This document shows positions 13,962 to 64,000 of a DNA stretch of 64,000 nt, in pieces. Positions within the stretch are counted from its first letter, which is position 1. Every line of letters begins with the position of its first letter. The stretch is taken from the NCBI GenBank assembly GCA_047967505.1, contig CM106538.1. One strand, 5' to 3'. The notes below the pieces were generated by a model, which was given only the letters and a program-made list of their open reading frames with translations, did no database searches and was not told the origin of the DNA. Origin of the DNA: Dipteris shenzhenensis. Its lineage: Eukaryota. The position numbers and the translations under genes were made by a program.

Positions 13962-14195
13962 AGTGTTTTTTGACCGAACCCACCTTGAGAACTGCGAAAC
14001 CTGCTGTGTTTTCCGTCATCAAATGTGAGTCGATGCTTGTCTCCGATTTGTTCCTGAGGTCTCCAAGGTCAGCGAGCCCATGGGAGGGGCACTTAACGGA
14101 TCTGTCTTAGTGGTGCGACAACATCGTCCTGTGGTTGGGAAAATCACAGCTGAAGCTAGACAGGCAATCGGTGCTAGTACAACCCCGTTGAAGAC

Positions 14196-17100
14196 ATGCT
14201 TGGCGAAAACGAGGTTCAGAAGGGGGGAAGCCAGGGAATCAACAGGTGCAAAGTATCTGGTCTGCATGCAAAGAAACAATTGACGTGCTCAAGTTCTGAA
14301 GACCTTAGCTTGGCAGCGGAGCTAGAACTATCTGGCCACATGCGCAAGGCTAGCTGTAGGTCTGGACTACAACTTGATGTACAGCCACCGCAACGGGGCA
14401 GTGGTTGGGACATGCTGACCTTAGCACAAACACTCAGTATTTTGGATCGGATGGCTGAGCTACCTCCAATCGATACCTTTATCTGCATCTTGCAGAAGTG
14501 CAGGGTAAAAAACAACCTAGCGTACGCCAAGCGTGTACATGCACACATTTACCATAATGGAGTGGAAGCTCAAGGATATGTTGGGAACAACATTGTGCTA
14601 ATGTATGTGGGATGTGGAAGTGTGCCAGATGCTCGACAGGTTTTCAACAGGTTGGCTCGTCAGAATGAGCGGTTATGGACTTCTATCATGTTAGCGTATA
14701 TCCACTGTGGGCAAACGCCCCATGCTCTCTACCTTTACAAGGAAATGCAAAAGGATATGGTATATCCTAGCAGGTATACGCTTATAGCCTTATTAAAAGC
14801 TTGTGCTAAGCTGAAAAATGTGGAAAGAGGTAGAGAGATTCACGTTGAGATCTCACAAAAAGGATTTGAAAAGAATTTATTAGTTGGCAGCGCTTTGATT
14901 GACATGTATGCGAAATGTGGCTCACTTGCAGAGGCACATCAAGTCTTTGACAAGCTGCCAGTTCAAGATGTTGTGTCATGGGCTTCACTGATCGCAGGCT
15001 ATGCTGAACACGGACGTGGGGAACAAGCACTTGATTGTTTTGAACAGATGCAACTGGAGGGCATCTCTCCAGATGCTGTCACATTTCTTTGTGCGTTGAA
15101 AGCCTGTAGCAGCGTAGGAGCCTTAGACAAGGGTCGAGAAATACATGCTGATGTCACTCAAAAGGGCTTTGAAGGAGATCTTTTTGTCGGTAACACGCTG
15201 GTTGACATGTATGCCAAATGTGGCTCACTTTCAGAGGCATGTGAAGCCTTTGGCAAGCTGCCAGTTCGAGATGTTGTGTCTTGGGCAGCACTGATTGCAG
15301 GATATGCCGAGCATGGACCTGGACAGAAAGCACTTAAATGTTTTGAACAAATGCAAATGGAGGGTGTCGCCCCAAATGTTGTCACATATGCTTCTGTCTT
15401 GAAAGCTTGTAGCTGTACAGGAGCCATTAGCAAGGGCCGAGGAATGCATGCTGAAATCACACACAAGGGATTTGAAAGAGAGATTTTTGTTGTCAACACT
15501 TTGGTCGACATGTATGCCAAATGTGGTGGGCTTTCAGAGGCGCAGGCAGTCTTTGACAAGCTGGCTGTACGAGACGTTGTTTCCTGGACTGCACTAATTG
15601 CGGGATATGCTGAACATGGACCTGGCCAGGAAGCACTGAAATGTTTTGAACAGATGATACTGGAGGGCATCTCTCCGAGTGCTGTTACGCTTGTTTGTGC
15701 TTTGAAAGCTTGTGGCAGTGTAGAAGCCATAGTTAAGGGCAGAGAAATACATGCTGAGGTCACTCGGAAGGGACTTGACAGAGAACTTTTCCTCGGCAAT
15801 GCATTGGTCGACATGTATGCTAAATGTGATTCACTTCTAGAGGCGCAGAAAACCTTTGAGAAGCTCCCAGTTCGGGATGTTATTTCCTGGGCTGCCCTTA
15901 TTTCAGGATATGCTGATAATGGGGCTGGTCAGGAGGCTCTGAAATGTTTTGAGAAGATGCAAGCGGAGGGCGTCTCTCCAAACGCTGTTACGTTTGCTTG
16001 TGTCTTCAAAGCATGTGGGAGCATAGGGGCCATAGAAAAGGGTAGACAAATATATATGGAGATCACAAAAATGGGATTTGAAAGAGATCTTGTTGTAGCG
16101 GGCACTTTGGTTGATATGTATGTCAAATGTGGATCACTTTCTGAGGCACGGGAAGTCTTTGACAAGCTACCATCTCGAGATGTTGTGTCCTGGACTGCAA
16201 TAATTGCAGGATATGTTGAACTTGGACCTGCTGAGGAAGCACTGAAATGCTTTGAACATATGCAAATGGAGGGCATCTCTCCAGACAATATTACTTTTAT
16301 TTGTATTTTGAAAGCTTGTGGCATCATAAGAGCCCTATACAAGGGGCGAGAGATACATGCTGAGATTGCCGGCAAGGAATTTGAAAGCAATCTTGTTGGC
16401 AGTGCATTGGTCAACATGTATGCAAAATGTGGCTCACTTTCAGAGGCATGCGAAGTCTTTTATAAGCTGCCAGTACGAGATGTGCTGTCATGGGCTGCAC
16501 TAATCGTGGGACATGCTGAATATGGACCTTGTCAGGAAGCAATGAACTGTTTTGAACAAATGCAACTGGAGGGCATCCCGCTGGATGCTGTTACATTGGT
16601 TTGTGTCCTGAAAGCATGTGGCAGCAGTGGAGCCATAGACCAGGGGCGCAAATTGCATGCTGAGGCTACACAAAAGGGATTTGAAGGAGATCTTTTTGTG
16701 GGTAACAGTTTGATCGACATGTATTCAAAAAATGGCTCACTTTCAGAGGCACGCGAAGTCTTTGACAACCTCCCAGTCCAAGATGATGTATCTTGGGCTG
16801 CACTAATTGCAGGATATGCTGAACATGGACCGGGGCAGGATGCGCTGAAATATTTTGAGCAAATGCAATTGAAAGGTGTCTTGCCGACTCCAATTACATA
16901 TGTTTCGGTCTTGAAAGCTTGTGGCAGCATAGGAGCCATAGGCAAGGCCCAATACATACATGCTGAGCTTGCACAAAGGGGCCTTGAAGGAGACCTTTTT
17001 GTTGGCAACACATTGATTGACATTTATTGCAAATTTGGCTCAATTTCTGAGGCAAGGAGAGTCTTTGAGAAGCTACCACTTCGAGATGTTGTGTCATGGA

Positions 17101-17795
17101 GTACAATGATAAAAGGATATGGCTTGAACCATGAGGGTGAAATGGCTGTACAATGTTTTAATGAGATGCATAACCAGGGTGTGATGCCAAATGCTGTTAC
17201 ATTCAATTGTCTTCTTACTGCATGCAGCCATACCAACCTTCTCTTTGAGGGTCAGGAGTATTTCAAAGTGATGAGACAAAAATATGGAGTTCCACCAACG
17301 ATAGATCACTATACTTGCATTGTGGACCTTCTTGCACGAACAGGGCATTTGCATGAGGCAGAGAAGATGCTTGAAACTATGAGCTTTCATGCATCTGAAG
17401 GAGCATGGACAGCTTTACTTAGCGCTTGCAAAACATATGGGAAAGCAGAACTTGGACAGAGGTGCTTTCAACAGCTTGTCCAGATGGCTCCAGAATCAGC
17501 CACGTCGTATGTGCTCATGGCGAACATCTATTCACTTGCTGACAAGTGGGATGATGCATATAGAATAGACGACCTGAGGAAACATGTAGGGGTAAAGAAA
17601 AAGCCTGCAAGTGCTGTGGTAGAGGTGGACAATAAGGTGCATGAGTTTGTGGTGGGTAGCAATCACAGTAACGAAATTTCTATAATGCTAGAGAGCTTGA
17701 ATTCACGCTCAAAGGTGGAAGGGCATGTGCCATACGTAGATATGGTCTTAAAAACCATTCCTCATGAGGAGAATGAAGCTGTATACAGAAATTAG
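14196..17795 (+). CDS. PLS-class pentatricopeptide repeat protein, L-S-(P-L-S)x8-P2-L2-S2-E1-E2 plus truncated DYW:KP domain; putative organellar RNA-editing factor
   Basis: Uninterrupted 1199-aa ORF with ~101-aa triplets (VVSWxALIAGY / TFxCxLKAC / LVDMYAKCGS), E1 (AWTALLSAC), E2 (SYVLMANIYS), then KPASAVVEVDNKVHEFVVG..GHVP. The true start codon is uncertain. Confidence 0.96.
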   Translation: MLGENEVQKGGSQGINRCKVSGLHAKKQLTCSSSEDLSLAAELELSGHMRKASCRSGLQLDVQPPQRGSGWDMLTLAQTLSILDRMAELPPIDTFICILQKCRVKNNLAYAKRVHAHIYHNGVEAQGYVGNNIVLMYVGCGSVPDARQVFNRLARQNERLWTSIMLAYIHCGQTPHALYLYKEMQKDMVYPSRYTLIALLKACAKLKNVERGREIHVEISQKGFEKNLLVGSALIDMYAKCGSLAEAHQVFDKLPVQDVVSWASLIAGYAEHGRGEQALDCFEQMQLEGISPDAVTFLCALKACSSVGALDKGREIHADVTQKGFEGDLFVGNTLVDMYAKCGSLSEACEAFGKLPVRDVVSWAALIAGYAEHGPGQKALKCFEQMQMEGVAPNVVTYASVLKACSCTGAISKGRGMHAEITHKGFEREIFVVNTLVDMYAKCGGLSEAQAVFDKLAVRDVVSWTALIAGYAEHGPGQEALKCFEQMILEGISPSAVTLVCALKACGSVEAIVKGREIHAEVTRKGLDRELFLGNALVDMYAKCDSLLEAQKTFEKLPVRDVISWAALISGYADNGAGQEALKCFEKMQAEGVSPNAVTFACVFKACGSIGAIEKGRQIYMEITKMGFERDLVVAGTLVDMYVKCGSLSEAREVFDKLPSRDVVSWTAIIAGYVELGPAEEALKCFEHMQMEGISPDNITFICILKACGIIRALYKGREIHAEIAGKEFESNLVGSALVNMYAKCGSLSEACEVFYKLPVRDVLSWAALIVGHAEYGPCQEAMNCFEQMQLEGIPLDAVTLVCVLKACGSSGAIDQGRKLHAEATQKGFEGDLFVGNSLIDMYSKNGSLSEAREVFDNLPVQDDVSWAALIAGYAEHGPGQDALKYFEQMQLKGVLPTPITYVSVLKACGSIGAIGKAQYIHAELAQRGLEGDLFVGNTLIDIYCKFGSISEARRVFEKLPLRDVVSWSTMIKGYGLNHEGEMAVQCFNEMHNQGVMPNAVTFNCLLTACSHTNLLFEGQEYFKVMRQKYGVPPTIDHYTCIVDLLARTGHLHEAEKMLETMSFHASEGAWTALLSACKTYGKAELGQRCFQQLVQMAPESATSYVLMANIYSLADKWDDAYRIDDLRKHVGVKKKPASAVVEVDNKVHEFVVGSNHSNEISIMLESLNSRSKVEGHVPYVDMVLKTIPHEENEAVYRN

Positions 17796-36410: not shown

Positions 36411-39400
36411 GCCATTCAGTTGGCCCTTCACTTTCCTTTCCACCCTTTCCACAACACCTACCTTGTATCTTGGCGTAGGGGGGAAAAAAAAACCAAAAAA
36501 AAAAGCAACCTTTCTCATTTGCTCCCTACGCCATTTTTTGCATCAATCTTCAACCCTAGCAACCTTTCTCATCGCTCCTATTTTGCATCAACCTTCAGCA
36601 CGTTATTGTATTGTCCTTAAAAGTCTCTTCCTCGTTCACTTCTTTTCATTGATTATTGGCCCTACTAGGGAACTCTTGGGAGATTGTTGGTATTTTGGGT
36701 CCCAGATGGAAGTCAAGTTGACCAATTACAGATGTCAATAGTTTTTGTTACGTGCAATAGTTTGTTAATGTATGGTTACCTTTCCTCATGTGACTCTTCC
36801 TTTCATTAAAGCAAGGCCATAGTGGTTTTGCCACCTTGTTAAATATCTCCTAGGTCTATGTCTCTTCCCTTCTTCCATGTGCCACATTTTTAGACTGACT
36901 TATTCTTTACGTAGGGAGCCTGGTGAAGTATTGTACTCCTTTGACTCCACTTGTTTGTATATTAACTCGTAGGTTGAAAGGGTTCACATTTGCTTGCTTT
37001 TTAAAAGTTTGTAAAGCTCTTTTTAAAATATTTTAAAGCTATTGTTGCCTTTTCTTATAAAGAAAGTGGACTTCCTGATCACCACTACGCATCCCACCTT
37101 CCTAAATCCTCTCTTGAATCTAGTCCCTCGCTTCCAAAAGTATGTATCAACTAAAAGCAACTATTTGGCTGAAAACAAGTGCATTGGAGTGGAACTTGAG
37201 CCGATGGTGTGATCAGTAAACATCATAACTTTATTTATTCAATAAAATAACTATTCGTACAAAATAAACTTTGTTGATATTAATAGCTAGTAAGAACAAC
37301 CTACTATATATATCTTGTGACCTTGCCCATGTTGCCATTATCTCCTAGGTTGATATGTGCACTTGTGTGTTTCTTAATAATTAGAATGCTATGATTTTGA
37401 CATTGCGTGTTTTTATATAACTACAAAATGAGTCAGTATTGTGGATATCTTTCACAATAGAAATGCAAACTTTTTTTATGAATGAGTGTGTAGAAGAAGT
37501 TTTATTACTTGTTATTTTATTTTGTTTGTAATGTTCATCCCTACACTTGTCCTTGTGAATGACTGAATGATTTTAGAAAAATTATTCTTATGCTTGTTCT
37601 TGTTGAATGAAGTTAGCATTCTTTCACTTGTGATTTTAGGAGGACTATCCAAGGCAGAGGACCTTTATTGACTCAACACACATAATTTATTTGCATTCAT
37701 TTTGGGGGACATCCTAGGGCAGAGTACCCTTAGACACACACACAAAATAAAAAATGTAGATCTCTCAGAATGAGAGATGCTCCCCGAGTAGCTGCTTGCA
37801 CACAAGTGTGTACATCCCTCCAAGTTGATGATGTGTCGATGAAGATCATGGCAAGAATGGCCCAAATATATGTCAATGAAGGCCATGGGAGCAACTACCA
37901 AGGGCAATTACTACATGACTCTCAAAGTGTTGCAATGTGAGTCACCAAGGTCGGAGCAAAGCCTAAATTCTAAGCAATTATGTCCAAGGGGGCAAATTTC
38001 CCAAATGGATGCCCAAAATAATAATGAAATTATACAATGTTGAGAGGAAAGCCCTAAATTTTTACATGCAGGAGGCTTCAATATAGCTCAAAGAATACAA
38101 AAATCAGGAAAGCCCTAAAATCTAAAAATTAGGGTTTAGCAAAAAATTAGGGTTTCTAAAAAATTGGGGCTTTGCAAATTTTCTTGTATGGAAGGATGCC
38201 TATAGCTCTTAGGAGGCCTCATATCATGAAAACCACATTTTTTATTTTTTATTTTGCTCAAAGATTGAGTAAACTAGAGATGGTGACTTTTAGGGTTTTG
38301 GGGCAACCAAGATATTCAGATAGGTCCCAAATCTGCAAGGCGGCTCATTCAGTGCACTAGAGCAATCTACAAGGCAACTCATTCAGTGCACTAGAGTAGA
38401 AAGTAGATCTTATGCTCGAGCAGAGGTGATGAAGACGCACGTCAGGGGATAGAGATTGTATAAGTATTGCTTCAAGTCGGCGTAGAGCAATAGTACGACG
38501 AGCTAGTGCACCTTCAAATGATTGTTGATTAGTAGGATACACAGATCACGAGCAGTTGACAGAGCCTACATTGTCAATCTTCTATGCACACCTGTGACGC
38601 TCTACATGAACTGCTAATGGATGAGGCTGATACTTGTGAGCACATGAAGGTGGATGACACATAAGCAATAGGTTGGTTGCTGCTTTTTGGTTGGAAGAAC
38701 TCAGTAATCATGCTATGAGTGGAGTCTGGATGTATCATGATCTCCCCTCCATGCCGTGAGCAATTGCTCCCTATGTCATATGGCCTCATGAATTTTCCCT
38801 CAAGAACATGGACAAATGTCCTCTAGATTTGCATATGATCAGCCTTGAGCTTGCCAAAAGGAAATATGCAAGCTGAATACAGTCAAACAGCAGTCTAACT
38901 ATTACATATCAAGAATTGTTACAAAGAAGACCCCAAAAGGAGTTATAACTACCCACTATGGTTCTTTGTAACTTCCATTCATGTATATGACTTGTGACCT
39001 TCCAACTTCCACATGACTTTGACTTAGCCTAGGTGCCCAAATACCCCTCAACACCTGGCACACCTGGTGGTATAACTTTTTGCAAAAAAGTGGAAGACTC
39101 GAACCCTTCCTAACCTTGATGGTGTAGGTTTTACTGATTGCAATTGTACCGTTTCATGGCTACATGCCAATGTTGGGAACCCATGAAATAGAGTAGAATC
39201 CATGCATGTTCATATAAAATGAATAAGTAGAACCATGCATGAATCAACATGTTCACATTCCACTGGCACGGAATGGACAGATTGCTCTGATCAAGCAAAA
39301 AGGAATAGGTCGATGAAGCTCCAACATCTGCAACATATGTTGGTGTAGAGTCCTCAAAGAAATCATTGATTTGTCTTTGAACCATCTGCATTTGACCTTG

Positions 39401-40041: not shown

Positions 40042-41682
40042 TTATAGTCTGATCACTTGCTCAATATCTGATTTTTGTTTTTCTTTATTGCAAACCTGAA
40101 TGTGCTGACCTTGATCATGTTTGTAGTGTCGAAATTTTTTTGGTATGAAGTAGAGGTGATTAGGGAACTCCTCCAGGCTCTTTTGGCTCCATTTTGGGCT
40201 CTCTTGGATCCAGGTTAAGTTCCTCCTTTTCCCTTCATCTTTCATCCTTTGAATTTCATTATCATCAGCATCAACATCATCATTATCATTTTTTGATTTT
40301 GTTTTGGTTGTATTTGAATTTGAATTTTGTATTTGTGCATCTTCCCAAACTATTGGAACTTTGCCACAGCAAGGATCTGACTTGGAATCTCCATCTGACG
40401 TCTTTTCTTTGCTTGCTTCTTCTTCAACATTCTGAATATGTGCCATCTTTGTAGCATCTTTTTTACATCTGTGGTTATCAACTTGAATAGCATCATTAGA
40501 AACATCATGATCTGAAATATTATCTTCAACATTGACATCAAACCATTCGTTTATTTCTGGCTTTGATTGTTGATTCATTTGTTTATCCCTCAATAGGAAA
40601 AAGATGAAAACATGAGCATACTGCATAATCGTCAATATCTTCTTCATCTCATCATCACACATGAAATTTGCAATCTTTGCATAATCAATATCATAACCAT
40701 CAGAAACAACATCAGCTTCATTGCTTTGACATACTTTAACATGATTGGTTGGAATTGAATTAGGAATGTAGTCCAAACCTTCCTTGTTTGTAAGGGCTTC
40801 TGTATTCAAGCTCCACAAAGATTGCATGAGGATTGATCTTCTCTTGCTTCCACATCACATCAATGGCAAAAGATGGTGCAAAGGTATAGCATGCACACTC
40901 CTCATATGTCTCCTCTAAGTTTTGATCGTCTTTGGTCAAAAAGCAAATCTCTTTATCATCATTTGTTGATCCAAGTTCTTCTTGCTCTATTTGTTGATGA
41001 AAAGTTACTGAACTTATAGGCATTGGATAATCTTCATAGACATCTACCATGCTTAGAAACTTTTAAAAACTTATTTCCAATTGGTCAGACTTGCTATCCG
41101 CCTATTTGGGCTGCTTATTGTCAGACTGCTTGATGTCGAACTCTAGTCAGACTGCTGTCGGACTCCAGTCTAACTATTTGTATTGAATGTGATCTGAAAC
41201 ATTTGCATCCATTTGATTATGAACAAAAATCACTGAATTATCATTGCAATTCTCACCGAGTTCTCACCAATATCTTTGAAATTTGAGTCGAAATCGGAAT
41301 TATTGTCCTCTTCATGCCCATATTCAGACTGTAGAATCTGAACTCTTTGTTGAAGCTCAGCAATCTCATTAATATGCTTATTCAATCTCCAATTACCTTT
41401 GTGAAATTTGATATGCCAAGATTTTGCCTTCTCAAGTAAAACTAAATATTTGGAAAATTTATCCAAGAGCTTTCTGGCCTTCCGATCAGACTTTGCCTCA
41501 CATAAAGTAGGAAAGATTTCATAGAACTTGTCATCCAAAAGTGAAGAACAATATTTCCTCTGATGACTGGATTGTTGGCAATGCTTACAAAAATTGAGAT
41601 AACAATCCTTTTCCACATAATCAGAATTTGAAGACATCACACAATGCATCCTCTGACACTTCTTTTTCTTTGACTTTCCCAT
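40042..41682 (-). mobile_element. Decayed gag-like ORF with a CCHC zinc knuckle followed by acidic low-complexity sequence; probable non-autonomous retroelement interior
   Basis: CKHCQQSSHQRKYC (Cx2Cx4Hx4C) at 41548-41589, followed by co-oriented ORF pieces; no pol motifs recognised. Confidence 0.5.
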
Positions 41683-42474
41683 GATAGGATCAGTAAATGA
41701 GAAAAGTAGAGATAATTGTACCTTTGATGATGCTTCAGACTGATCAGGCTTTAGAACTTGTCCATTGAAACTATGTCGGACAGTCTTCCTACAACTGAAC
41801 ACAAGTCAGAGCTCAATCCAACAAGAAAATCTTTTCCATTTCAGAATCTAAAAACATATACGAAAAGCTGATACAATTTAGAATCATGTCATCAAGTCGA
41901 ATTTGAAAGAGCCACTTAGAAATAGGAGAACAATGATTAGACTTCTGTCGGACCACACAGTCGGATTGTTTCCTGTCAGAGCAAGTTGGACTTTTGTCGA
42001 ACTGTGGTCGGACTATCTCCCTACAACCCAAAGATCAAAAACTGCATCCACTTGTCTGACATACATTCCCTTTGCTTCGGATTTGATGTTGAAAACTCAA
42101 GTTGCACTTTGAATCATCTAATAAACCTTTAATCTTTATCTTCAAGCTACCCTTTTTAGGATCATGTTTTGCTTCAAAATTTTACACTCAGATATTTGTG
42201 TACCTAGATAGCATGCTTCACTAAGTGCCTCACTTGTGGCGCACCATCAAATTGCCTCATTATTCCAAGCTCTATTGCGTCCATCTCTGGTACTCTAATG
42301 GATTCTAATCCAAAGTCTACTAGGACCACCTATTTTCTCTTTGTACTTCATTGGAGTTTCCTAAGAGGAGAGTCTTCCCTTATCTACAAAACCATGATAT
42401 CATCATCTAAGGTCTCACATGTGCTATGGGCCACTATGGCGACATCATGTGCATAGGATGATATATCTGGGAAA

Positions 42475-49200: not shown

Positions 49201-50499
49201 TAACATATAGGTGTAAACTTGCTTTTGATGGTTTCCATAGTAGGAAAATAGACCCTTGATGAACTAAATGTGCATTATATTAAAGGAAAGAATGTTTCTA
49301 CAGAGTATTGATTCTTCTCTCTAATAGGAAAATTTTGCCTTATATACAAACCTATTATAGAGAAAAAGGTTGGTGGACGTGACAAAATTTGCTCAACATT
49401 GCATTGTATTATGATTTTACAAATGCAGATAAGAATTCTCAAGTAGGAAATACAAATGTTTACAATAGCTATAAATTGGTGTATATTTAGCATGCATGCA
49501 CCTCTCTACTACTAGCTTACATTTTTTTAGATATATGATGATCAATCACCAATTAAAAAGATTAGATTAAGAGAATATTTATCAAAATACAAACAATTAT
49601 TTTATTTTTAATCTTTTTGTGTGATTCCTTATAGTAGCCACCCTTGTAATAAGAGCCAAGTTTTAAGGGAGACTTTGTCCCTTCCTTTTCTTAGAAATTG
49701 TATCTCCTCATGGGTTTTATATGAGTCCATATTTTGGATAATGAACCTTGACAAGCATAAACAATAATTATATCCATGCTTAGTTGGTTCCTTGTGGCAA
49801 CTTGTTGTAGGATCTATATTACCCAAGACAACAATAATTTTCTTCAAAAATAGAAAAAATTTGACCTTGTCATTCATTTTAAACTTTTCCCATAAATTGT
49901 TTTTCACAAGACAAATGGACAAGCCATTATTTATTTTATACACATGTCAAATAATTCATCCTATGTATATACTTGCGAGGAAAAAAAGTAATCAATCATT
50001 AATAGTTCTCTAACATAACAAATTTGATAAACAACATGTATTTTCTAACCTTTTTTGCTGGTATAATGTCTTCATTCAAGAATCTTTTGGGCATTCGTCC
50101 CAAATCATTGTGTTGTAAGACCTTATGCTAGCCATTGTAGGAAAGTGCAAACATACATTTGTTATGATAGGTAAAAATATATTTACTTAGAGAACTCAAT
50201 CAAAATTTCTTGCACCAATATTTTAGCATAATGTTAATTGTTATATGGCTAATCCCATGATCCTCATGATCATTATCTTTTGAGATTACATAGTTGCCTT
50301 GTCTTCCCTATTTTGTTTGTACAAATGAATAAATTTATTTTTCCATAGTTTAGTAATTATCTATGCACATTAATAAATTTCAAACTTGAATAAGAATTGT
50401 GTGTATGTGTGTGCATACATGCTTGTGCATCCATGCATGCATGCATGTGTGCTTGCGTGCGTGCGTGCATGCGTGCATGCGTGCGTGCATGTGTGCATG

Positions 50500-50532
<33 letters not shown>

Positions 50533-50534
<2 letters not shown>

Positions 50535-51095
50535 AAATGTCCCACAAATAATTGAGCCATACGATTAATTCCATCAATTGGATAAAAAGTAGAAAAAGGG
50601 AAACATGTAAGGAAAAAATACTTGAGACATCTAAGTTGAAAAATGCAACAACTAGAGTTTGCAAAAAAATCGACCAAAATTAAGAAATTTTAATAATATT
50701 GAGTTTGACAAACACAATATTGAAAAAAGATGTCAAATCCTCAGGCAATCCAGGTTTCAAGGTCAGGGTCCACTTACTTGCCACCATCCAAACAAACTAC
50801 ATTTTAGAACATCATAGTTACATATGGGTAGATAGGTAATGCATGTTTTCCCCGACTTGTTATTGCTTTACCTAGGAATATAGACAACCATATGGATTCT
50901 TAGACAATTTAAAAAAGTTTAAGTCAAGTGGAGTAAGGAGTGAATGAGTGCAAGGGTTGAGAAGGGATTAGAGGAGGTATGGGATTAGTGGACTTGGTGT
51001 GTGGGGTGGTTAGAAAAAGAGTGTAAATGGGAGATTTCATGGGGGGTACATAATAGATAATTCATAGTTGGGAAAGTATACATGTGTGTGTGTGT
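50533..51095. repeat. ~560-bp direct repeat, copy 1, flanked by (GT)n-rich tracts on both sides
   Basis: Colinear with 54393-54960, e.g. GAGACATCTAAGTTGAAAAATGCAACAACTAGAGTTTGCAAAAA and ACTTGTTATTGCTTTACCTAGGAATATAGACAACCATATG. Confidence 0.95.
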
Positions 51096-52541
51096 GGAAG
51101 ACAAGCCAACAACCCCTTTAGCATAGATAAAAGACAAAAGAGTCAGGGAAAAGGATAGAAAGAGAACATGATAGAATTAAGAAAGAGTTTGAGTATGTAG
51201 GTAAAGCACCTACAAAATTGCATAAGAAGTATATGAGTTTTGATAAGAAGTGCCAATAATGTTTTTGCAAAAAATTAGAGCTTGGTGAAGTCCTAACAAG
51301 CATCTCGTTTATTGAAGAGGAGAGTCTACATACCTGCTACCATCCAACAAGGAAACGTGGTAAGAACTAGCTTAACTTAGGTTGGGAAGATAGGTGTCAT
51401 AAACACCCCTCCCTTGTTATCGGGGTCACAATAAGATAGGAGCTTAACCAAAAACTTAAACAGCTCGATGTAGCATTATAAGTGCAAAAGAGATGGGTTT
51501 TCTAAATGGTGGAATGGAGTAAACCAAGTATTTTTTTATTTGGAGGGAAAGGGAAGGTGTAAAAAAATTAATCTAAGTATTAAGCACATGGAGGGTGGGA
51601 GACTAATATGAGTGATAGGAAAAATAAATCTTTATTTTAATTAGGAGAGGAAAACATTTAGATAACTATGAGTGGGGAAAGAAAATGAGAGATAGAAGTC
51701 GTGTATTAAGATAAAAGAAAAAAGAAAAAATGAACAAAAGGGAAAGAGACTATAGTCATACATGAATAAGATAAGGGTGGGAAGAAAGTCTAATTAGTGC
51801 TAGGGTGGAAAGGTAATGCATTTTTAAGGGTTTTTAATTTTTTAGTTAAAAAAGGAAGTGGTGAAAAAGAAAGTTTTAACAAGATCGGTAATGAAATGTG
51901 AAAATAGCGATGGTTTTTTAAGGGAATTTTTTTGAAAAGACATGATAAGGGGATATTTTAAAGGGAATTAATAAGAGGGGTGAGAGAGTTTTTAAAAACC
52001 AAGATAGAGATGGACATGTAATAAAGGAAAGGGGAAGAAAGATGTTAGAGGTTTGAATGAACTTAGCATTAGAAAAAACTTGGAGAAGGGGTATTTTAAG
52101 AGGAGGGGGAAAATTAGAGAAGGCAGAGGGAAAAAATGGGAATAAGGAAATAAGGGAAAAAGGAAGAAAAGGAAATAAATAATTAGAAAAGGAAGAGAGG
52201 ATACATAGAGAGAGAAGAGGGTGAGGTAGGGACAAAATGTATGTAAAGAGAGGGGGTTTGGGGGGGGGTGCTGGGGGTAAATATAAAATAATTAAGGGGG
52301 GCATTGAAGGGGGTATTAGAAATAAGTATAAGGGAGGGAGAAATTAGATATAAAAATTAAGAAGGGGGAGGGGGGGAATTTGATGTAACATTTGAGAAGG
52401 GAAAGGGTAATTATAAAGGAGAAAATGAGAGGTAGAGAGTAAGGAGAAGAGGAAAGAGAATTAAAAAAAGGGGAGGAAATTTTAATTAATAAGGGTGCTT
52501 CAAAAGGGAAAAGGGGGGGTTTAAATGTAATGCTAGAGGAA

Positions 52542-52898: not shown

Positions 52899-54392
52899 AG
52901 AGGGTCTAGAGGAGCAGATGTAGGAGCAAATGAGGGTGAGGTGCAAGGGCTTTGGAGGTGGGAAGGACGGGTTTGAGGTGAGGGTTTAAATAGGTGAGGG
53001 GAAAAGTCAGGGGGTCGAGGAAACCAGTCGATCAGGGAGTTTGAAAGTTGGGGCGTTTTGGGGGGCTAGAGTAGTGAGGTAAGGTTAGGGAGTGGTTTAA
53101 GAGTGTGGAAAAGGCTAGGAATAGTTCAAAATAGGGAGGAAGGAATAGGGAAGTAGGAAAACATTAGGAAAAGGTAGGAAGATAAGGGAAAATTAGAAAA
53201 AAAAGGGGGGGGTTAGCATAAAAGTTAAAAAGGAAAAATTTGGCAAATAAGAGTAGAGAAAAAATTAATGGGAAGTAGGAAAAAGTCTTTAAGTAGATTC
53301 AAGAAAAATAATGAAAATAAGACATTTAGAAGAAAAGAAATAACCAAAAAATACATGGGAAAATCTAAGGAAAACAAGAAAAGAAAAGTAATGAAGGAAA
53401 TTAAGAAAAATTAATATAGGAAATAAAAATTAGGAGATAAGGACAATAAGTAAAATTAAAAATTAGATAAAATACAATAAAATTAGAAGAGAGAAAAATT
53501 ACAATAAAATTTTATGGAGTTAAAGAGAAAATTTAGAAAAAATTATTAATAAAAAAGGAAAAAAGGAGGGGTTTTAATAAAGGATAAAAAGGGAAAGGAG
53601 TAAGAGATGGGAAAAATAAGGAAAAGGAGATAAGAAAAATTAAAGCAAAACAAAAACAAAGGAAAACTTTAAGGTAGGTAAAAAAATTAAGGAAACAATG
53701 AAAAAATACATTTAATTAATAAGAAAACTAGGGAGAAGAGAAAAGGAAAGGAAAATGAGTAACAATTAAGCAAAACACAAAATAAATAGGGAAAATAATG
53801 GAAATTAAAAGGGATTAACGAACAAAGGTCATAGGATAAATAATTAAATTTTAGAAAAAGGAAAATTAGGGAAGAATTTATTAATTTTCTTTTATAAAAA
53901 AGGAAATTAGGGACAAATTGGGAGAAAGTATTAGAAAAAGGGAGAATAAATAAGAAAAAAAAGGGATAATTAAGGAAAGTAGGGGTGAATAGGGATAAAA
54001 GGGGGGGGAGATAAGGTGGGAATACAAAGGAACAAGGGTTTAAACAAAAGGGGGAAGGGGTAGGGAGTGTGTATGTGTGGCCCACCCCCAACCCAGAGGG
54101 TAAGACCACATGGTGGGGAGTAAGCTCACCATGTGGAACTTACTCCCCACCTACTAATAATACTTGAATAAAATTGGATATGTATGATAAGTGTCAAAAT
54201 GAAAAAATGATGCCAATAGTAAATGTGTAAACCACTTCTGCAAAATAGATATAAAAGTTAGTTAAAAATAAGGCGGATCATAAAATGACTAGGGATTATC
54301 CATGCTAAAGAATTATCCAATGGATGTGAACTAACTGAATGGCACTAGCCCAACCAAAGGTTAGTTCACAAATCAAAGTGTGTTTTTATAAT

Positions 54393-54960
54393 AAAAAGTC
54401 CCATCAATAATTGAGCCATACAATTAATTCCATCAATTGAATAAAAAGTAAAAAAAGGGAAACATATAAGAGGAAAAAATGTTTGAGACATCTAAGTTGA
54501 AAAATGCAACAACTAGAGTTTGCAAAAATTTAGACCAAAATTAAGAAATTTTAATAATATTGAGTTTCACAAACACAACATTGGAAAAAGATGTTGAATC
54601 CTCAGGCAATCCAAGTTTCGAGGTCGGGGTCCACTTACCTACCACCATCCAAACAAATTAGGTGTTATAACATCATAGTTACGTTTGGGTAGACATGTAA
54701 TGCATGTTTTCCGTAACTTGTTATTGCTTTACCTAGGAATATAGACAACCATATGAATTCTTAGATAATTAAAAAAAAATCAAGTCACACATGGAGTAAG
54801 GAGTGAATGACTACATGGGTTGAGAAGGTATTAGAGGAGGTATGGGAGGATTAGTGGACTTGGTGTGTGGGGTGGTTAAAAAGAGAGTGTAAATGGGAGA
54901 TTTCACGGGGGGTACATAAAATAATAATTCATAGTAGGGAAAGTATACGTGTGTGTGTGT
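54393..54960. repeat. ~560-bp direct repeat, copy 2, running into a compound (GT)n/(GA)n tract to ~55280
   Basis: Colinear with 50533-51095. Confidence 0.95.
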
Positions 54961-55003
54961 GTGCATGTATGTGCACATGCATGTGTGTGTGCATGTGCAT
55001 GTG

Positions 55004-55058
<55 letters not shown>

Positions 55059-55223
55059 ACACATGCATGTGCATGTGTGCACACATGCGCACATGTGTGT
55101 GTGTACAGAAATAAGTGTCTCTGTGTGCGAGATACATTTACTATTGTGTGTGTGTGTGTGTGTTGGGGGGGGGGGGGAGTGGGTGTGTATACACATGGAC
55201 ACATGCGTGTGTGTGTGTGTGTG

Positions 55224-55275
<52 letters not shown>

Positions 55276-55983
55276 CAGAGAGCAAAACCTAATAATTTTT
55301 ATCACATTCATTCTTGAACTTACAATTGGATGACTATGTTGATTTCTACAGATTAGAGAAGGATTTGAGGTGTACCGATGAGAGTGCTAGAAGGTGTGGA
55401 GCAATGGTCTATTAAGGTGGAGGGTGGGAAGGCCTACAGAGAGCCCCTATTGGCTAGTCCCCTTACACTAGGGACCACCCAAACCATCCCCGCCCCTCCC
55501 CCTTAACCCATGTTTGACCCTCCTACCAGGTGCACCTCCCCCACATGAGCCCAAATCTGCCTTCAATGAGATGGTAGGCCCCTTGTCGTAGATTTTTCTT
55601 CTCCCCTCGTCTAGGACCTCTACCCTCCACTATTCTGGTCCAGCCTGCCATTCCCTCCATTTTTGAATTGTGAGGCTGCCCTCCCTTACATTTTCCCTCT
55701 TCCCCCTCTTTCTCTACTCCGTCCGGCTCTAGCCTGCTTGTTGCAGCTCCTCTCTCTCTCTCTCTCTCTCTCCCTCTCCCCTCTCTCTCTCCTGTGCCTT
55801 TGTTGGTGTTGCTCTGTCCTTCTCCATCTCCCTCTTTTGTGCCTCTATTGGAGCTGCTCTGTCCCTCTCCTATGCCTCTATTGCTACTACTCTATCCCTC
55901 TTATTCTCCCTCTTTTGTGCCTCTATTGGAGCTACATTGTCCTGTGTAGGAGTCCCATTCTCGTTGTTGCAACCTCTGCAAGC

Positions 55984-56493
55984 ATGGTGAGGAGCAAGGC
56001 TACAAGATCATCCAATTTTATAACCTCTTATGTCTTCCACAACACCATAAATGCATTGGATGTATGGATCCCTTGCACCTACAACTTAAATGATTGGATA
56101 GTGATGAAAGGATCGGCCAAAGGTCCACATAAGCTTCCCAAGAGCAAGAGAGGTGATATCTTGCATGAGTGGAAGGGACACATCTTGAAGTTCAAGTTTG
56201 GGAAGAAAGGATGGCTCACAAAAGTGAAACATGTCTACATGGAAAAAGATATGCGGCTTCCTCCATCATTCAATCAATCTAGAATACCATCACATTGTGA
56301 GCCTTTCTATCTATGTACCTTTTTCACATGTAAGTGTACCGATCCATATGGAAATTTTGTGTTTAGTTTCTAAGATCTCTTATTCATGGTGGCAGATGTT
56401 TTCCCTTCAGACTTCAAGGAGTGGGAACTAGTTGAATTATTCATAGGCAAGTTCATTGCAATTCATGAGGATATTGTTGCAAGAGGCATTTGA
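55984..56493 (+). pseudogene. Two-exon ORF encoding a BAH-like domain (exons 55984-56329 or 55984-56314, and 56396-~56493)
   Basis: TYNLNDWIVMK..EWKGHILKF..VKHVYMEKDM..|YVFPSDFKEWELVELFIGKFIAIH follows the BAH motif order. A phase-1 GT..AG intron (GTAAGT at 56330, GGCAG ending 56395) restores the frame. Confidence 0.55.
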
Positions 56494-56506
56494 GCTTGAT
56501 GAATTC

Positions 56507-56878
56507 TCATCTCAACAGGGTAATGTTTGCAGCGCATTTGGGTGAGACCATTCTTTGTCCCATTACATCGGTGAAGTCATAGAGCATCTCGTGGTCTTCC
56601 ATAATAAATTTTCTCCTCAAGGGCCTGCAGAGCTGCTGAAGTGCAAGGCATTGTCGCATGCTATCGGATTCTCCAACATTACTTAGAATGCCAACAAAGT
56701 GATTTTGGTACACCGCCTAGCTACTATCAATGCTTTTGGAGGGCTCATGAGAGTTTGATGAGGTGCCACCAAACTTGGATAGGTTCGTGTGCACAGATGC
56801 CATGGAGGTGGTGGAGCTAGAGGAGGAAGGGTGGAGGCGATGGCCTGTGGGTCTAGCAGTGTTCTTCACTCATGCCAT
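56507..56878 (-). pseudogene. Decayed ~123-aa ORF starting with a histone-H3-tail-like sequence MA(R)VKNTARPTG
   Basis: ATG at 56878 is in frame with ORF 56507-56713. Two internal stops (TGA at 56870-56872, TAG at 56717-56719) are each revertible by one transition. Confidence 0.55.
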
Positions 56879-56891
56879 TGAATAATGAGAG

Positions 56892-56918
56892 TTAGGGTTT
56901 TTAAAAGCATTTTATATA
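56892..56918 (-). promoter_or_regulatory. TATA box plus telo-box upstream of the H3-tail-like ORF
   Basis: Minus strand reads TATATAAA (56918-56911), AAACCCTAA (56900-56892), then ATG at 56878. Confidence 0.6.
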
Positions 56919-57869
56919 GGCTCATCATCTTTTGACACCCCTTTTAATTATGTTTAGGGTGTCATTGTGCCCCTTGCCCCCACCCTAACCCCTCCAAACC
57001 CCCCACCCTCGTCGCCCTCCCCCCTATTATTCTCCCCCACCCACACCCATCACCCTCTCCCATACCCCCATCCCACCGTCACACCCCTCCCCCCTCCCTC
57101 CCCCCACCCTTGCTACCACTCCACCCCCCCCCCCTTTCCCTAGCCTGCCCTATGCCCCTCCTTTCTCTTCCCCCTCCTCCAACCTCTCCCCACCTTCCCC
57201 AACCTCATTACCTCACATGGACCCTGGACTCCAAGAGTCAGTACAAAACTTATGGTCAAGATAAGCAAGATATTCAAGAGTGAGTACACAAATTGTGATC
57301 AAAATAAGCAAGATATTCATTTCATAACTATATACAATTACACCATAGCTTCTATTACTGGTTGGACCCATTTGCTCCCTTCTCTCACTCTTCTTGCAAC
57401 CAATGTGTGACTCATTGACTCCCTATGGATGCTTTCCAAGCACTATGCCTTCTATTCTTTGATACAATTTGAACTGCTTTTGCAAGTTCTGATGCCTTTG
57501 CCTTTTCAGACTTCAAAGTCCTTCCTCAGTGTATAAATTCCTAGATCAAATATTGCTATCACCCAGTAGAGCAAAGAAGCTAAGAAAATCCAAAGATATA
57601 GAAAAATTCTAACTTTCAACATATATCTAGATCTATTTGAGTAAATCCAAATAATAAGGAATAAAAAGATCTACATGTAAAAACATATAAGTAATGTTTT
57701 TTCCAAAAAGACTTTTTTGAGATAATTACATCTATGAAAAAAGTAAGAGAAGGATAAACCAAAATAAGGAAATTATTATAAAACAATAAATCACACCAAA
57801 TATGTAAATAAGAGTACCTTTACAAATATGAATAGATAGCCATATGAATCAATAAAAGTATATATATCT

Positions 57870-57907
57870 TCTATGTATATGTGTATGTATGTATGTATAA
57901 ATATACA

Positions 57908-57955
<48 letters not shown>

Positions 57956-58054
57956 CAAAATTTATTAGCACTGTCTTCCAGGCAACGCTATACTAACAGT
58001 TTTGTCAAAAAGTGTCCCACACAGTTTGTTGCCAAGTGGCCCCCTTTTATTTTG

Positions 58055-58126
<72 letters not shown>
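57870..58126. repeat. (TATG)/(TACA)n/(TA)n and (TC)n microsatellites
   Basis: Runs at ~57870-57955 and ~58057-58126. Confidence 0.95.
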
Positions 58127-58129
<3 letters not shown>

Positions 58130-59690
58130 CTCCACATAGTACCTTCCAAGAAGGATGACTCCACCCTATCGTAGGCCTTCTTGAAATCCAAGAGGAGGAT
58201 GGCCAATGGCTGTGACTCCTCCTTGGACCAATCCACTGCCTCCCAGAATGTGAAGATGTTGTCTAGGATGATGCGTTCCTAGACGATGAACGCAATCTAT
58301 GTGTCGTGAATAATGTCAGTAAGATGGGGCCGTAATTGCAAACTCAAGACCCTGGCGATGATCTTGTATGCAGTATCAAGCAAAGTGATTGGTCTCCACT
58401 ACCGGTGGATATCTAACCTATCTCCCCCTTTTGGGATCAAACAAATCCACCCCCTGCTCAAGGAATGAGGGAGGGAGCCCGTGTCAACTGAAGTCATCCT
58501 CTCTATCTAAAAGAGCTGACTGTAAAAACCTGTGGTCAAGTCTAAAATCTCCTGCGGGTCAGTGTGCATGATGCTATGTGGATCTTGAAGATGCTTCAGC
58601 TGCGTGCTTGCTGATCGAGGCCCAATGGTCTAAAAACTTTACTTCATCATCTTGTCCCCTTGCTGTATCCACCGAGCCCAGGAAAAGTGATAGGAGAACT
58701 CAGACTGCCAAATCTCCATGTCCTGAAGCTCAAGGCAAGTGCTCTCAAACCTATCCCTAAGCCACTAAGATCTTGGGCCCTACTCCCTAAGATGCTCTAT
58801 GGAGGTGAGGTCTCTCCTTAGTGCTCCCTCATGCTCTTAAAGAGTCCTCCCCTCTGCCTAAGGGCATAAGCTTGCAACTCCTTACTACTCCTCAGGATCA
58901 CATCGGCCACCCATGAAGCCTAGCCCTTGCACGGTGCAATCTCTGACTACTGCCCAATCCCTACCATGACCTACTGAATCTCCTCGTCTTGCAAGAGGTC
59001 CTATGGAATGCGGACCCACTTTTGGGGAAGACCTCTATAGAGCTGCTCTAAGTGAACTACTATTGGAGAGTGGTCTGACATCGTGGTACCTACCACAATC
59101 CCGATAGAGCCACCTCTATGTAGTGCCCAGTCGCCAATGTAGAAGCGGTCTACCCTCCCAAGTAGTCCATCATGTCTCCTCTATCCAAAAGAAAAGTTGA
59201 GGCTACCAGGTATCCTGATGAAATCGGGCTCTCACCACATGGGTCTCTGCCACTGATCATGAAAACGAATTGCTCCCACATGCTCCGCTTTGCTACTATT
59301 GGCATATTAGAGAAGGAGGTGCCACCCTGCTTGTGCTCCCCAATCTCCATGTTGTTGAAGTCCCCTCCAAAATTCCAAGAATCTACAACTGGAAGACACT
59401 CTGAAAGCCTCCTTCAAAAGGATTGGATGGTGCTGTCTACACATTGGGTCATACACATTTAGGATCCCAATCTTGGACTCTCCCATCCAAACTGGCCATC
59501 ATGGGATAAGCTCGCCCTGCTCATAGACCTCTGGAGCCACTATCAGTGAGACCGAGATGCAGACCCCTCCGCTCCATCCTACTATAGGGGACCACACCTC
59601 CGAACCTCTCCCTGGGAGGAGGTGGTGTCACCGTCTAAGGATGTCCACTATCTGCCTTACCCAGTGCCCTCTGCAACTCCTACTGAAAGA
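58127..59690 (-). mobile_element. Decayed L1-like LINE (endonuclease to mid-RT), bounded by (TC)n tracts
   Basis: WNFGGDFNNME (APE endonuclease); NIFTFWEAVDWSKEESQPLAILLLDFKKAYDRV, same family as the RT near 12900. Confidence 0.85.
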
Positions 59691-60577: not shown

Positions 60578-60923
60578 AAAAACTTTTTAAATATGTAGAA
60601 TTTTAACACTATAACATAAGAAATGGATGTGTTCATATCACACCGATCGTTTTGACTACAAATATGACCATGCTTGGAGTCATATTGACCAAGTTATGGC
60701 CAAAATAAGATTCGTTGCCCAAGCTCCTCAAGTACGGCCAGGGGCTGCACTAGCGTAGCCCCTCAAGTGCTCGGGGGACTTGGACAGCCAGTCTTATTTT
60801 GGCCATAACTTGGTAAATATGACTCCAAACATGGTCATGTTTGTAGTCAAAATGATTGGTGTGATATGACCAAAGCCATTTCTTGTGTTAGAGTGTCCAA
60901 ATTCTATATAATTAAAAGTTTTG
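60578..60923. repeat. ~345-bp spacerless foldback palindrome (MITE-like)
   Basis: Arms pair around CTAG at 60750-60753, e.g. ACCAAGTTATGGCCAAAATAAGA vs TCTTATTTTGGCCATAACTTGGT. Confidence 0.92.
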
Positions 60924-61366: not shown

Positions 61367-64000
61367 CTATCCAATGCCCATCAATACACGACAATACTCA
61401 AACCACTGACTAGGTAGACTCTTCGTCAGCATATCTGCAGGGTTATCATCTGTATGAACCTTGACAAGCTCTATGCACTTGTCCTCAAGTATGATGAAAT
61501 GGTACCTGACCTCAATGTGTTTGGTCTTTGCATGAAAGACTGGATTCCGTGCTAGCTGAATAGCACTCATGGAATCACTATGCAATGTCGGTACACCTGT
61601 ATGAATCCCCAAATCTCCCACTAGCCGATCAAGCCATATAGCCTCCTTGTAACCCTCTGTGGCTGCAACATACTCAGCCTCTGTGGTAGACAAAGCAATG
61701 CACTTCTGTGCGTGAGACATCCACGACACTGCACCACCTGCAAAGGTGAACACATAACCAGAAGTGGATCTCCTACTATCCACATGCCCTGCATAGTCTG
61801 AATCTGTGTACCCAAGTACACGCATGTCTCCTTTACCAAAGCAGATGCACATCTCCTTGGTACCCTTCATGTACCTCATGATGCACTTAACTGCCTCCCA
61901 ATGCCTCTTTCCTGGATTAGCCATATACCGGCTAACAACTCCCACTGCAAATGCAATGTCTGGTCTAGTAGCTATCATAGCATACATAAGACTCCCAACT
62001 GCTGATGCATAAGGAACCTTGGCCATCATGGCCCTTTCCTCATCTGATTTGGGACTATCTGTATGACTCAGTTTCACATATGGAGGCAATGGAGTACTCA
62101 CTGCCTTCCCCCCCTCCATATTGAAACGTTGTAATACTTTTGTAACATACTCTTTTTGTGAAAGCTAAAGGAGTTTCCTACTCTGATCACGCGTGATGCG
62201 CATACCAAGAATATGACCTGCAAGTCCCAAATCCTTCATATCAAAGGCCTCATGCAACTTGGCCTTTAATGCATCTAGCTCATAAGTATTCTTACTAGCC
62301 AATAGCATATCATCCACATATAGTGCTAGGATTATCAGGCTATTATCCTTAGCCCTTTTAGTGTAGAGGCAGTGATCAATTTCACTCCTTCTAAAACCCT
62401 GGGACCGAATGAAAGCATCAAACTTCTGATACCATTCTCTAGGTGCTTGCTTAAGATCATAGAGACTCTTCTTCAGCTTGCAAACTAAATGCTCTTTTCC
62501 CTTTTCTTCAAAGCCTTCCGGCTGCACCATGTAAATTTCCTCATGCAAATCCCCATGCAAGAAAGCTGTCTTGACATCCATTTGCATAAGCTCCATATCC
62601 TCTACTGCCACTAGTCCAAGCATGCATCTAAGTGTGGTCATCTTCACAACTGGAGAGAATATCTCATCAAAGTCCACACCCTTCTCTTGCTTGAACCCTT
62701 TAGCAACCAAACGGGCCTTGTACCTAGGCACATCATCACCTGTGACCTTCATTTTGTAGACCCATTTACATGGCAATGCTTTCTTTCCATGTGGCAAAGA
62801 AACCAAGTCCCAAGTCTTATTCTTCATAAGTGAACTCATCTCTGATTGCATAGCATACTCCCACTTGCATTGATCCTCATGCATCATAGCCTCTCTGTAG
62901 CAAGAAGGCTCCCCGCAATCAGTAAGCATCACATAGTCTACCCCTGGAACAAACCTATCAGGTGGTCTAGACACTCTAGATGATCTTCTCAAGGGCATTT
63001 CAGCTTGCTGTCCCACTTGCATATCAGCCACATTTGGCTCATCATTTCCACCAATAGATGATCCATCATCTACCCTTGATTGTATACCTGTGGGAGTACT
63101 TGGTGGCACCATTTCTTGCACATTTGGTACATGGACAACTTGCTGTCTATCAACATATGCAGGTGGATTCACATCCTGGAAAGTGATTCTCCTCATTTCC
63201 ACGTCCCTCATGGGTGCCTTATGCATCTTCTTCTCATTGAAGACCACATCATGGCTGCGTATGATCTTCTTTGCTTCTGGATCCCAGAGACGATAGCCCA
63301 TCTCTCCACTTTCACCATAACCCAGAAAGATGCATTTCCTAGACTTAGGATCTAGCTTCTTTCGAAGCTCTTTTGGCACATGTGCATATGCCTCACACCC
63401 AAATATACGCAAATGAGAGTAAGAGGGCTTCTTGCCACTCCATGCCTCTTCAGGAATACCACCATCCAAACTCTTACTAGGTGATCTATTGATCACATGC
63501 ACTGCAGTCTTCATTGCCTCAGCCCAAAAACCACTAGAAAGACTTGCATTGGAAAGCATGCATTGCAACCTTTCTTGAATGGTACGGTTCATCTTTTCTG
63601 TAACTAGATTTTGCTCTAGAGTACGAGGGGATGTAAGCTCCCTCTTAATCCCACGAGTATCACAGAAATGCTGAAAGTCATGAGAGAGATACTCTCCACC
63701 ATTGTCAGTCCGTAGGCATTTAAGCATTCTACCTGACTGATTCTCAACCAAGGCCAGCCATTTCTGAAATACCTGGAACACATCACTCTTCCGAGCTATA
63801 GTATAAGCCCACACTTTCCTAGTTGCATCATCAATGAATGTCACATAGTATTCAGCCCTGCCTAATGACCGCGTAGGCGTGGGACCACATACGTCTGAAT
63901 GCACCAAATCAAGCATTTCAAACTCTTTCTTTCCCCTTCTTTTATGGGCTGATTTAGTCTGCTTCCCATAGAGACAGTGCTCACAAAATTCAAAATTAGA
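61367..64000 (-). mobile_element. Near-intact Ty1/copia pol (INT-RT-RNaseH), runs off the right edge
   Basis: ORFs 62165-63916 and 61367-62119 are in the same frame, split by one TAG. Motifs VHSDVCGP, LRTDNGGEY, YKARLVAKGF, QMDVKTAFLHG, YVDDML, YTDSDYAG, TKHIEVRYHF. Confidence 0.97.

Follow-up and report, generated by a model that had tools for sequence, protein, structure and literature searches.

The window, by which we mean the whole 64,000-nucleotide stretch of DNA analysed here, is plant nuclear DNA with many decayed repeats. At 55984 on its plus strand, a start codon opens a two-exon reading frame behind a CT-rich leader (55460..55983, +), which is common to sister copies as traced by the read-through alignment of a relative, P0008, and by the contigs of four DNA runs. 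Exon 1 (55984..56296, +) comprises 104 open codons plus 1 base and is assigned to a family of genes with a predicted BAH fold. It is followed by an intron of 99 nt (56297..56395, +) of the GT..AG type, in which the donor GTGAG starts at 56297, the acceptor AG ends at 56395, an in-frame TAA occupies 56371-56373 and the length keeps the frame. Exon 2 is still family-like over 56396..56472 (+), as indicated by an exon-2 HMM and by tblastn. The rest of the frame, 56473..56493 (+), is off-family and closes with a premature TGA at 56491-56493; sister contigs differ here from 56453 onwards. The spliced product predicted between the ATG at 55984 and this TGA has 136 residues. Contig breakpoints and loose ends place at 56453..56473 (no strand assigned) a junction where the BAH-fold gene copy meets an unrelated repeat. 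Beyond this junction, on the minus strand, lies an interrupted frame (56507..56878, -), read earlier as an "H3-tail mimic" and here found to have no gene support, with AAACCCTA at 56893-56900 and a TATA-like CTATATAAAA at ~56912-56921 upstream of its ATG (together 56893..56921, -). The stop codon of the minus frame (56507-56509) is 13 nt from the plus-strand stop, and therefore the two 3' ends abut. All of the literal features given in the preliminary description are present: the spliceable plus-strand ORF, the TATA-like CTATATAAAA, AAACCCTA and the minus-strand reading MA-stop-VKNTARPTG, and the abutting 3' ends.

Other elements were recorded along the window. Frames of Ty3/gypsy-type RNase H and integrase were recognised by eye at 1.2-3.1 kb of the window, and remnants of Gag, RT and RNase H lie at 43.2-46.6 kb. 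A copia element at 61370-64000(-) has Pfam matches to integrase, SH3-like and RVT_2 domains. Two direct repeats of ~0.6-0.7 kb (50393-51096 and 54378-54963) are 85-96% identical and ~3.86 kb apart in an LTR-like layout; the DNA between them is purine-rich and of low complexity, and no coding remnant was seen inside. An inverted repeat at 60580-60922, with 156-nt arms that are 84% complementary and 31 nt apart, resembles a MITE-like hairpin. On inspection by eye, a 1205-codon open frame at 14178-17795 (+) with many PPR-like repeats appears to be an intact gene amid the repeats. Two further open frames, 40045-40854 (-) and 41233-41805 (-), of 270 and 191 codons, matched no Pfam families at E<=0.01; the first weakly matches residues 328-385 of P0050, a protein described below (tblastn, E 0.044), probably by chance. 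A search of the window against Rfam found no families.

Family and exon structure of the plus-strand gene

A word-based search identified P0004 as a close relative, with 72% identity over 97 aa. A profile built from exon 1 and P0004 and run against 1.84 billion representatives matched 57 proteins at E<=1e-3, a count that includes the repetitive protein P0059, left out as a likely false hit. Of the 57, 19 passed the stricter cut-off of E<=1e-10, and two passed E<=1e-30. Most of the profile matches are short ORFs on short contigs. The named members are a hypothetical protein of Ceratodon purpureus (KAG0573080.1; P0057) and a transcript of Psilotum nudum from EukProt (P0014), so that the family is present in at least one moss and one fern. 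The word-based search from P0012 returned itself alone, metagenome scans with the profile A1 and with P0067 gave no confirmed loci, and a search of the ESM Atlas with P0012 gave no usable match.

The similarity extends across the intron. P0012 matched the window over 56050-56466 in tblastn (E 2.4e-24), and the matches of P0012 and P0030 reach 56466/56475, following exon 2 nearly motif for motif. When all six-frame ORFs of the window were searched with an HMM of the relatives' sequence from exon 2 onward, the ORF at 56374-56490 was matched at profile positions 1-26 (E 5.4e-5). The short ORFs of the relatives stop a few residues past C-K, C-E or C-M, which is the point of the GTGAG donor in the window. 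These endings are probably produced by read-through of a T/GTAAG-type donor, which would make the intron position, as judged from the protein sequences, common to the family. The intron proposed in the preliminary description thus coincides with the exon boundary of the family, as seen both in tblastn and in the ends of the relatives' ORFs. The window ORF is placed in the family of KAG0573080.1 and P0012 by its similarity over exon 1 and exon 2 and by the same exon boundary. Of 34 conserved columns, 24 carry the consensus residue in the window ORF, among them K64 and H83, which are nearly invariant in the family.

Full-length members have ~410 residues; P0012, in which the intron is retained, has 412 aa. 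Intact members consist of an N-terminal BAH-fold domain of ~165 residues, followed by ~250 residues for which no fold match was found. P0050, together with P0062-P0075, stands for a cluster whose 29 sequences are 593-594 aa long and come from ~2.2-kb contigs. In P0050, an N-terminal zinc-ribbon segment (PF18073, E 2.6e-5) precedes the BAH-fold domain. Since this cluster joins the ribbon to the BAH-fold domain, some species appear to express a fused form. The scan of 36 relatives revealed no Pfam families at E<=0.01 other than the P0050 ribbon and, in P0030, a thyroglobulin repeat matched by chance. We found no description of the family in the literature, as judged from the titles and abstract beginnings of part of the matching papers.

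Predicted fold of the plus-strand product

We modelled the window ORF using AlphaFold2 from 59 aligned sequences, with the intron read through and X placed at the TAA. The model has an overall pLDDT of 74.4 and a pTM of 0.60, with residues 10-90 at pLDDT 86-94; few sequences stand behind the second half of the domain. Comparison of the model with 48,161 chains using VIA-align placed BAH proteins at all of ranks 1-12 (Z 10.0-8.0, 94-110 residues aligned). The BAH domain is named in the titles of nine of these twelve entries, and the remaining three are ZMET2, EBS and DNMT1. DNMT1 BAH1 ranks highest (Z 10.0, RMSD 3.2 Å over 94 residues), followed by AIPP3 (Z 9.8), ORC1b (Z 9.3), ZMET2 (Z 9.1), EBS (Z 9.1), Rsc2 (Z 8.9), ORC1 (Z 8.7), ASI1 (Z 8.5), PBRM1 (Z 8.2), DNMT1 (Z 8.1), Ash1L (Z 8.0) and TNRC18 (Z 8.0). 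Ranks 13-17 are MTA1, MET1, DNMT1 and DIM2 entries, and the first plainly non-BAH fold is a chromodomain at Z 6.4. These scores are moderate; even unrelated models usually have a top match at Z 7-8 in VIA-align. Foldseek listed 33 matches to the same model, every one a BAH-containing protein, with PtSHL the best (E 7.2e-3, probability 1.00); none of the matches listed reached E<=0.001.

The model of P0012, built from the family alignment, has a lower overall pLDDT (55.7), with residues 10-90 at pLDDT 87-95. Its best Foldseek matches are the BAH domains of EBS, SHL and AIPP3 (E ~0.3, probability 0.96-0.97), interspersed with unrelated entries. VIA-align, which is independent of Foldseek, gave BAH proteins in 12 of the top 14 positions for this model (Z 6.5-4.1). 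A search of the BFVD viral structures returned nothing at E<=0.001.

Sequence comparison gave a different picture from the structural one. None of the window ORFs matched any Pfam family at E<=10, so that PF01426 is unmatched. When 59 family members were scanned singly against PF01426, one touched it (E 0.017, below the gathering cutoff), and none of 36 relatives matched it at E<=0.01. The 59-sequence family profile (A3) found no BAH chains among the PDB sequences at E<=10, its sole match being PrsA (E 9.3). Among the PDB sequences, profile A1 also matched Tako8, a designed WD40 protein (E 3.1e-8). This match was rejected; we judged it an artefact because it is the sum of eight identical weak repeats, each of which has an E of ~400 as a single stretch.

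The uniform list of structural matches, the agreement of two programs and the match over both exons lead us to take the BAH fold of the plus-strand product as supported and, on these models, as very probable. The earlier proposal of a BAH-like ORF therefore stands as regards the fold, by VIA-align and by Foldseek on the AlphaFold2 model, and falls as regards a PF01426 sequence match, which is what assignment to the BAH family at the sequence level would call for. The conserved residues W63, H83 and Y85 are, by position only, candidates for a methyl-lysine cage, on a placement of the cage that we assume to hold for this family.

The junction, the minus-strand frame and copies elsewhere

Similarity to the family ceases at the junction. 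In tblastn with eight relatives against the window, no similarity was found past 56475, and beyond its first 26 positions the exon-2-onward HMM has no match in the window. We considered whether later, decayed plus-strand exons follow 56493 (for example at 56546-56686), in which case the minus-strand ORF would be mere antisense; these were rejected by the HMM of the relatives and by Smith-Waterman alignment. Four downstream plus-strand frames were aligned with four relatives, with 300 shuffles per pair, and 15 of the 16 pairs gave z between -0.7 and 1.3. The remaining pair, the frame 56608-56820 and P0012, gave a z of 2.4, a score that was equalled or exceeded in 7 of 300 shuffles.

Copies elsewhere were studied via protein databases and the contigs of the four DNA runs. 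A sister copy (X5 piece 28) aligns up to 56472, where its contig runs on with 52 unlike letters. Conversely, pieces 7, 14 and 29 begin at 56473, with 16-34 unlike letters beside them, on contigs covering 56473-56656. Three runs (X1, X2 and X5) have loose contig ends "behind 56453", and X4 has them "before 56473". The contig breakpoints at 56472/56473 thus indicate that the gene copy ends at a junction with another repeat. A 30-letter consensus of the sister loose ends, when translated by eye, appears to retain the conserved Gly that follows the His in the family, which the window frame does not have. Relative to its relatives, the window copy is without ~270 of ~410 residues: the BAH domain is incomplete, with the relatives going on for ~30 more domain residues and then ~250 further residues.

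These observations bear on whether a short BAH-like protein of 136 residues, ending at 56493, is still encoded here by a live gene. Once spliced, the frame has no stop between its ATG and its TGA, the splice sites follow the GT..AG consensus and most of the conserved residues are kept, as counted above. Such a product would, however, be missing the strands by which the domain is closed at its C-terminal end, as well as the ~250-residue C-terminal part of the relatives, and its last 5 codons are off-family, differ from the sister contigs and sit at a repeat junction. We regard a live gene as very unlikely.

The preliminary description had also proposed that the minus strand encodes a mimic of the histone H3 tail, in which reversion of a stop codon gives ARVKNTAR, matching ARTKQTAR at 6 of 8 positions. 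The minus frame begins with an ATG at 56876-56878 and reads MA-stop-VKNTARPTG. Its actual agreement with ARTKQTAR is 5/8, the sixth claimed position being the stop codon itself, at the position of Arg2. This stop (codon 3, TGA, 56870-56872) is joined by a second at codon 54 (TAG, 56714-56716). The window contains four sites with 5-of-8 agreement, compared to 1.53 +/- 1.09 (maximum 4) in 100 first-order Markov random windows. A 5-of-8 site preceded by Met occurred in just 1 of the 100 random windows, a criterion that is post hoc and belongs to a scan of very many windows. AAACCCTA occurs seven times in the window versus 2.55 expected, a number reached in 1 of 100 shuffles; three of the seven sites lie within 170 nt at 38130-38298 (-).

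No homologues or histone matches were found for the minus frame. Its ORFs matched no Pfam families at E<=10, the 121-residue read-through had no homologues among proteins of 66-210 aa, and the 69-aa ORF returned unrelated hypothetical clusters only from the ESM Atlas. Against 177,635 PDB sequences, including many H3 chains, phmmer at E<=10 returned a dynein chain alone (E 1.5). With no histone match at E<=10 in Pfam or the PDB, we also rejected the idea that the minus strand carries a pseudogene of H3 or a CENH3-like gene. In the listed contig pieces, the minus frame is split over repeat pieces (56473-56656, 56549-56740, 56777-56973), and contigs show loose ends at 56740. In other contigs the piece 56777-56973, which holds CTATATAAAA and AAACCCTA, is joined directly to 57147-57326 (pieces 15, 22 and 30). 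Since the sister contigs break at 56472/56473, 56656 and 56740, the listed copies contain neither the pair of frames nor the minus frame alone as one unbroken stretch. With its two internal stops, the H3-tail-mimic gene does not survive this comparison: the minus-strand "H3 mimic" looks like a chance reading of an unrelated repeat, and not a gene.

Loss of the link between the two ORFs in sister copies had been named beforehand as a result that would refute the pairing. None of the 32 contig pieces listed, of 318, bridges both ORFs across 56472/56473, where loose ends occur on both sides, and to the extent of these pieces the pairing is refuted. The whole region 55300-57500 is multi-copy, with 71-86 contig pieces per run, mostly <95% alike and with transitions predominating; the leader is covered by contigs of the four runs at 80-95% likeness. 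P0008 matches 55819-56175 (E 7.5e-32), and its N-terminal read-through extension matches 55460-55912, with an E of 5.8e-6 that was obtained with composition correction off and is subject to a low-complexity caveat. Within the window there is no second copy of the stretch. At 56188-56261, the summed word depth reaches 7245, 2415 and 4936 in X1, X2 and X4, compared to tens to hundreds alongside, and an A>C change is seen at 56227 within it; the segment, a small part of exon 1, is similar to a sequence that is highly abundant in the organism from which the runs come.

We looked for the boundaries of a mobile element around the gene copy. A flank-to-flank local alignment for a terminal direct repeat scored 33, where shuffled sequences averaged 24.4 and reached at most 42. 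No inverted repeats of >=11 nt with non-simple sequence were found between 54900-55990 and 56470-58300, and the inverted repeats that the repeat search returned around the stretch are microsatellites. No transposase was found beside the BAH-fold copy within the window. Of the coding remnants, two come closest: a fragment at 57991-58278(-) that looks LINE-like on inspection by eye and has no Pfam RT match, and the copia element described above. Nothing was found that ties either to the BAH-fold stretch.

In the preliminary description, the reader gene and the H3-tail-mimic gene were the convergent cargo of an undescribed mobile element that manipulates chromatin. The support for the BAH fold, the multi-copy repeat DNA of the locus and the reading M-A-stop-V-K-N-T-A-R behind CTATATAAAA and AAACCCTA, a Met-plus-5-of-8 combination that arose in just 1 of 100 random windows, all speak for this explanation. 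Weighing on the other side are the two stops and the want of relatives or family matches for the minus frame, an agreement of 5/8 for which ~1.5 sites are expected per window, the breaking up of both pair and minus frame in the listed copies, and the searches for terminal direct repeats, for inverted repeats of >=11 nt outside low-complexity DNA and for a transposase, all of which came back empty. The cargo pair on a mobile element is left as an extremely improbable reading of the locus.

A different use of mobile DNA would be for a repeat, such as a DNA transposon, to capture and spread the gene fragment alone, in the manner of transduplication by Pack-MULEs, Helitrons or CACTA elements. This would account for the multi-copy state of leader, exon, intron and exon. 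The intron is retained, and therefore the copy was made from genomic DNA and not from mRNA, as transduplication would have it. The upstream 0.5 kb shared with the sister copy P0008, the dozens of diverged contig pieces with mostly transitions and the Ty3/gypsy, LINE and copia fragments all around are likewise in keeping with it. However, TIRs, terminal repeats and a transposase were not found around the copy, and the intron lies at the same position in the relatives from moss and fern, in keeping with an old gene family of the host. We consider transduplication rather unlikely.

Interpretation and comparison with known systems

Taken together, these results suggest that the locus is probably a pseudogene fragment, the 5' portion of a gene belonging to an undescribed BAH-fold family of plants and cut at a repeat junction, and that the minus-strand "mimic" is a product of chance. 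The interval from 55984 to ~56472 (+) contains the start codon, exon 1, the 99-nt intron and most of exon 2. Past ~56472 an unrelated repeat abuts, and the frame continues for 5 more codons to the TGA, so that the window copy has neither the closing strands of its BAH-like domain nor any of the C-terminal part. The DNA of the source organism contains many such copies, diverged to 80-95% likeness. Intact members, by analogy with other BAH proteins, may use the BAH-like domain on chromatin, at a histone tail or nucleosome surface, or on a protein partner.

The family occurs in a moss and a fern, has a predicted BAH fold without a significant Pfam BAH match, and has as its sole named member a protein annotated "hypothetical". 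On the strength of the models, it is a candidate for a lineage-specific chromatin-binding module of seed-free plants. The window locus, as a dead and truncated copy, says nothing on function. A broader proposal is that seed-free land plants have an unrecognised BAH-fold family with near-invariant His and Lys at cage positions, whose copies in the source genome were amplified as dispersed repeats, possibly driven by transposons. If so, a repeat-borne chromatin-binding protein might target or shield its own copies. We regard this proposal, including its last step, as speculative and quite unlikely. A reader and a histone mimic carried together on a mobile element would be striking; the evidence does not carry that idea.

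The analogy drawn in the preliminary description was to VANC of VANDAL transposons, a transposon-borne protein that counteracts silencing (PMC10398659). At the window locus, in contrast, no element, ends or transposase were found. Histone mimicry provides the second analogy (PMC11738798). Like the H3 tail and viral mimics, the minus frame begins M-A-x-x-K-x-T-A-R, with five of eight positions identical to ARTKQTAR. Unlike H3 and the viral histone mimics, it has a stop at Arg2, a second at codon 54 and no histone fold.

A third comparison is with BAH proteins themselves. DNMT1 BAH1 (7lmk), ZMET2 (4fsx), ORC1b (5hh7) and ORC1 (4dov) are top structural matches, a likeness by structure only. Unlike DNMT1, ZMET2 and ORC1, the window family has no methyltransferase, AAA+ or other catalytic domain. 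EBS, SHL and AIPP3 (PDB 5z8n, 5znp/5znr and 7cce) are also among the best structural matches of the window model, with an RMSD of 2.8 Å over 96 residues for AIPP3 and of 5.2 Å over 103 residues for EBS at the Z-scores given above. Identity to EBS, SHL and AIPP3 in the aligned parts is 8-16%. In contrast to these three proteins, the window family has no attached PHD finger, and its C-terminal half is without a known fold. The order of the strands and the division of the domain over exons 1 and 2 in the window family fit the BAH barrel.
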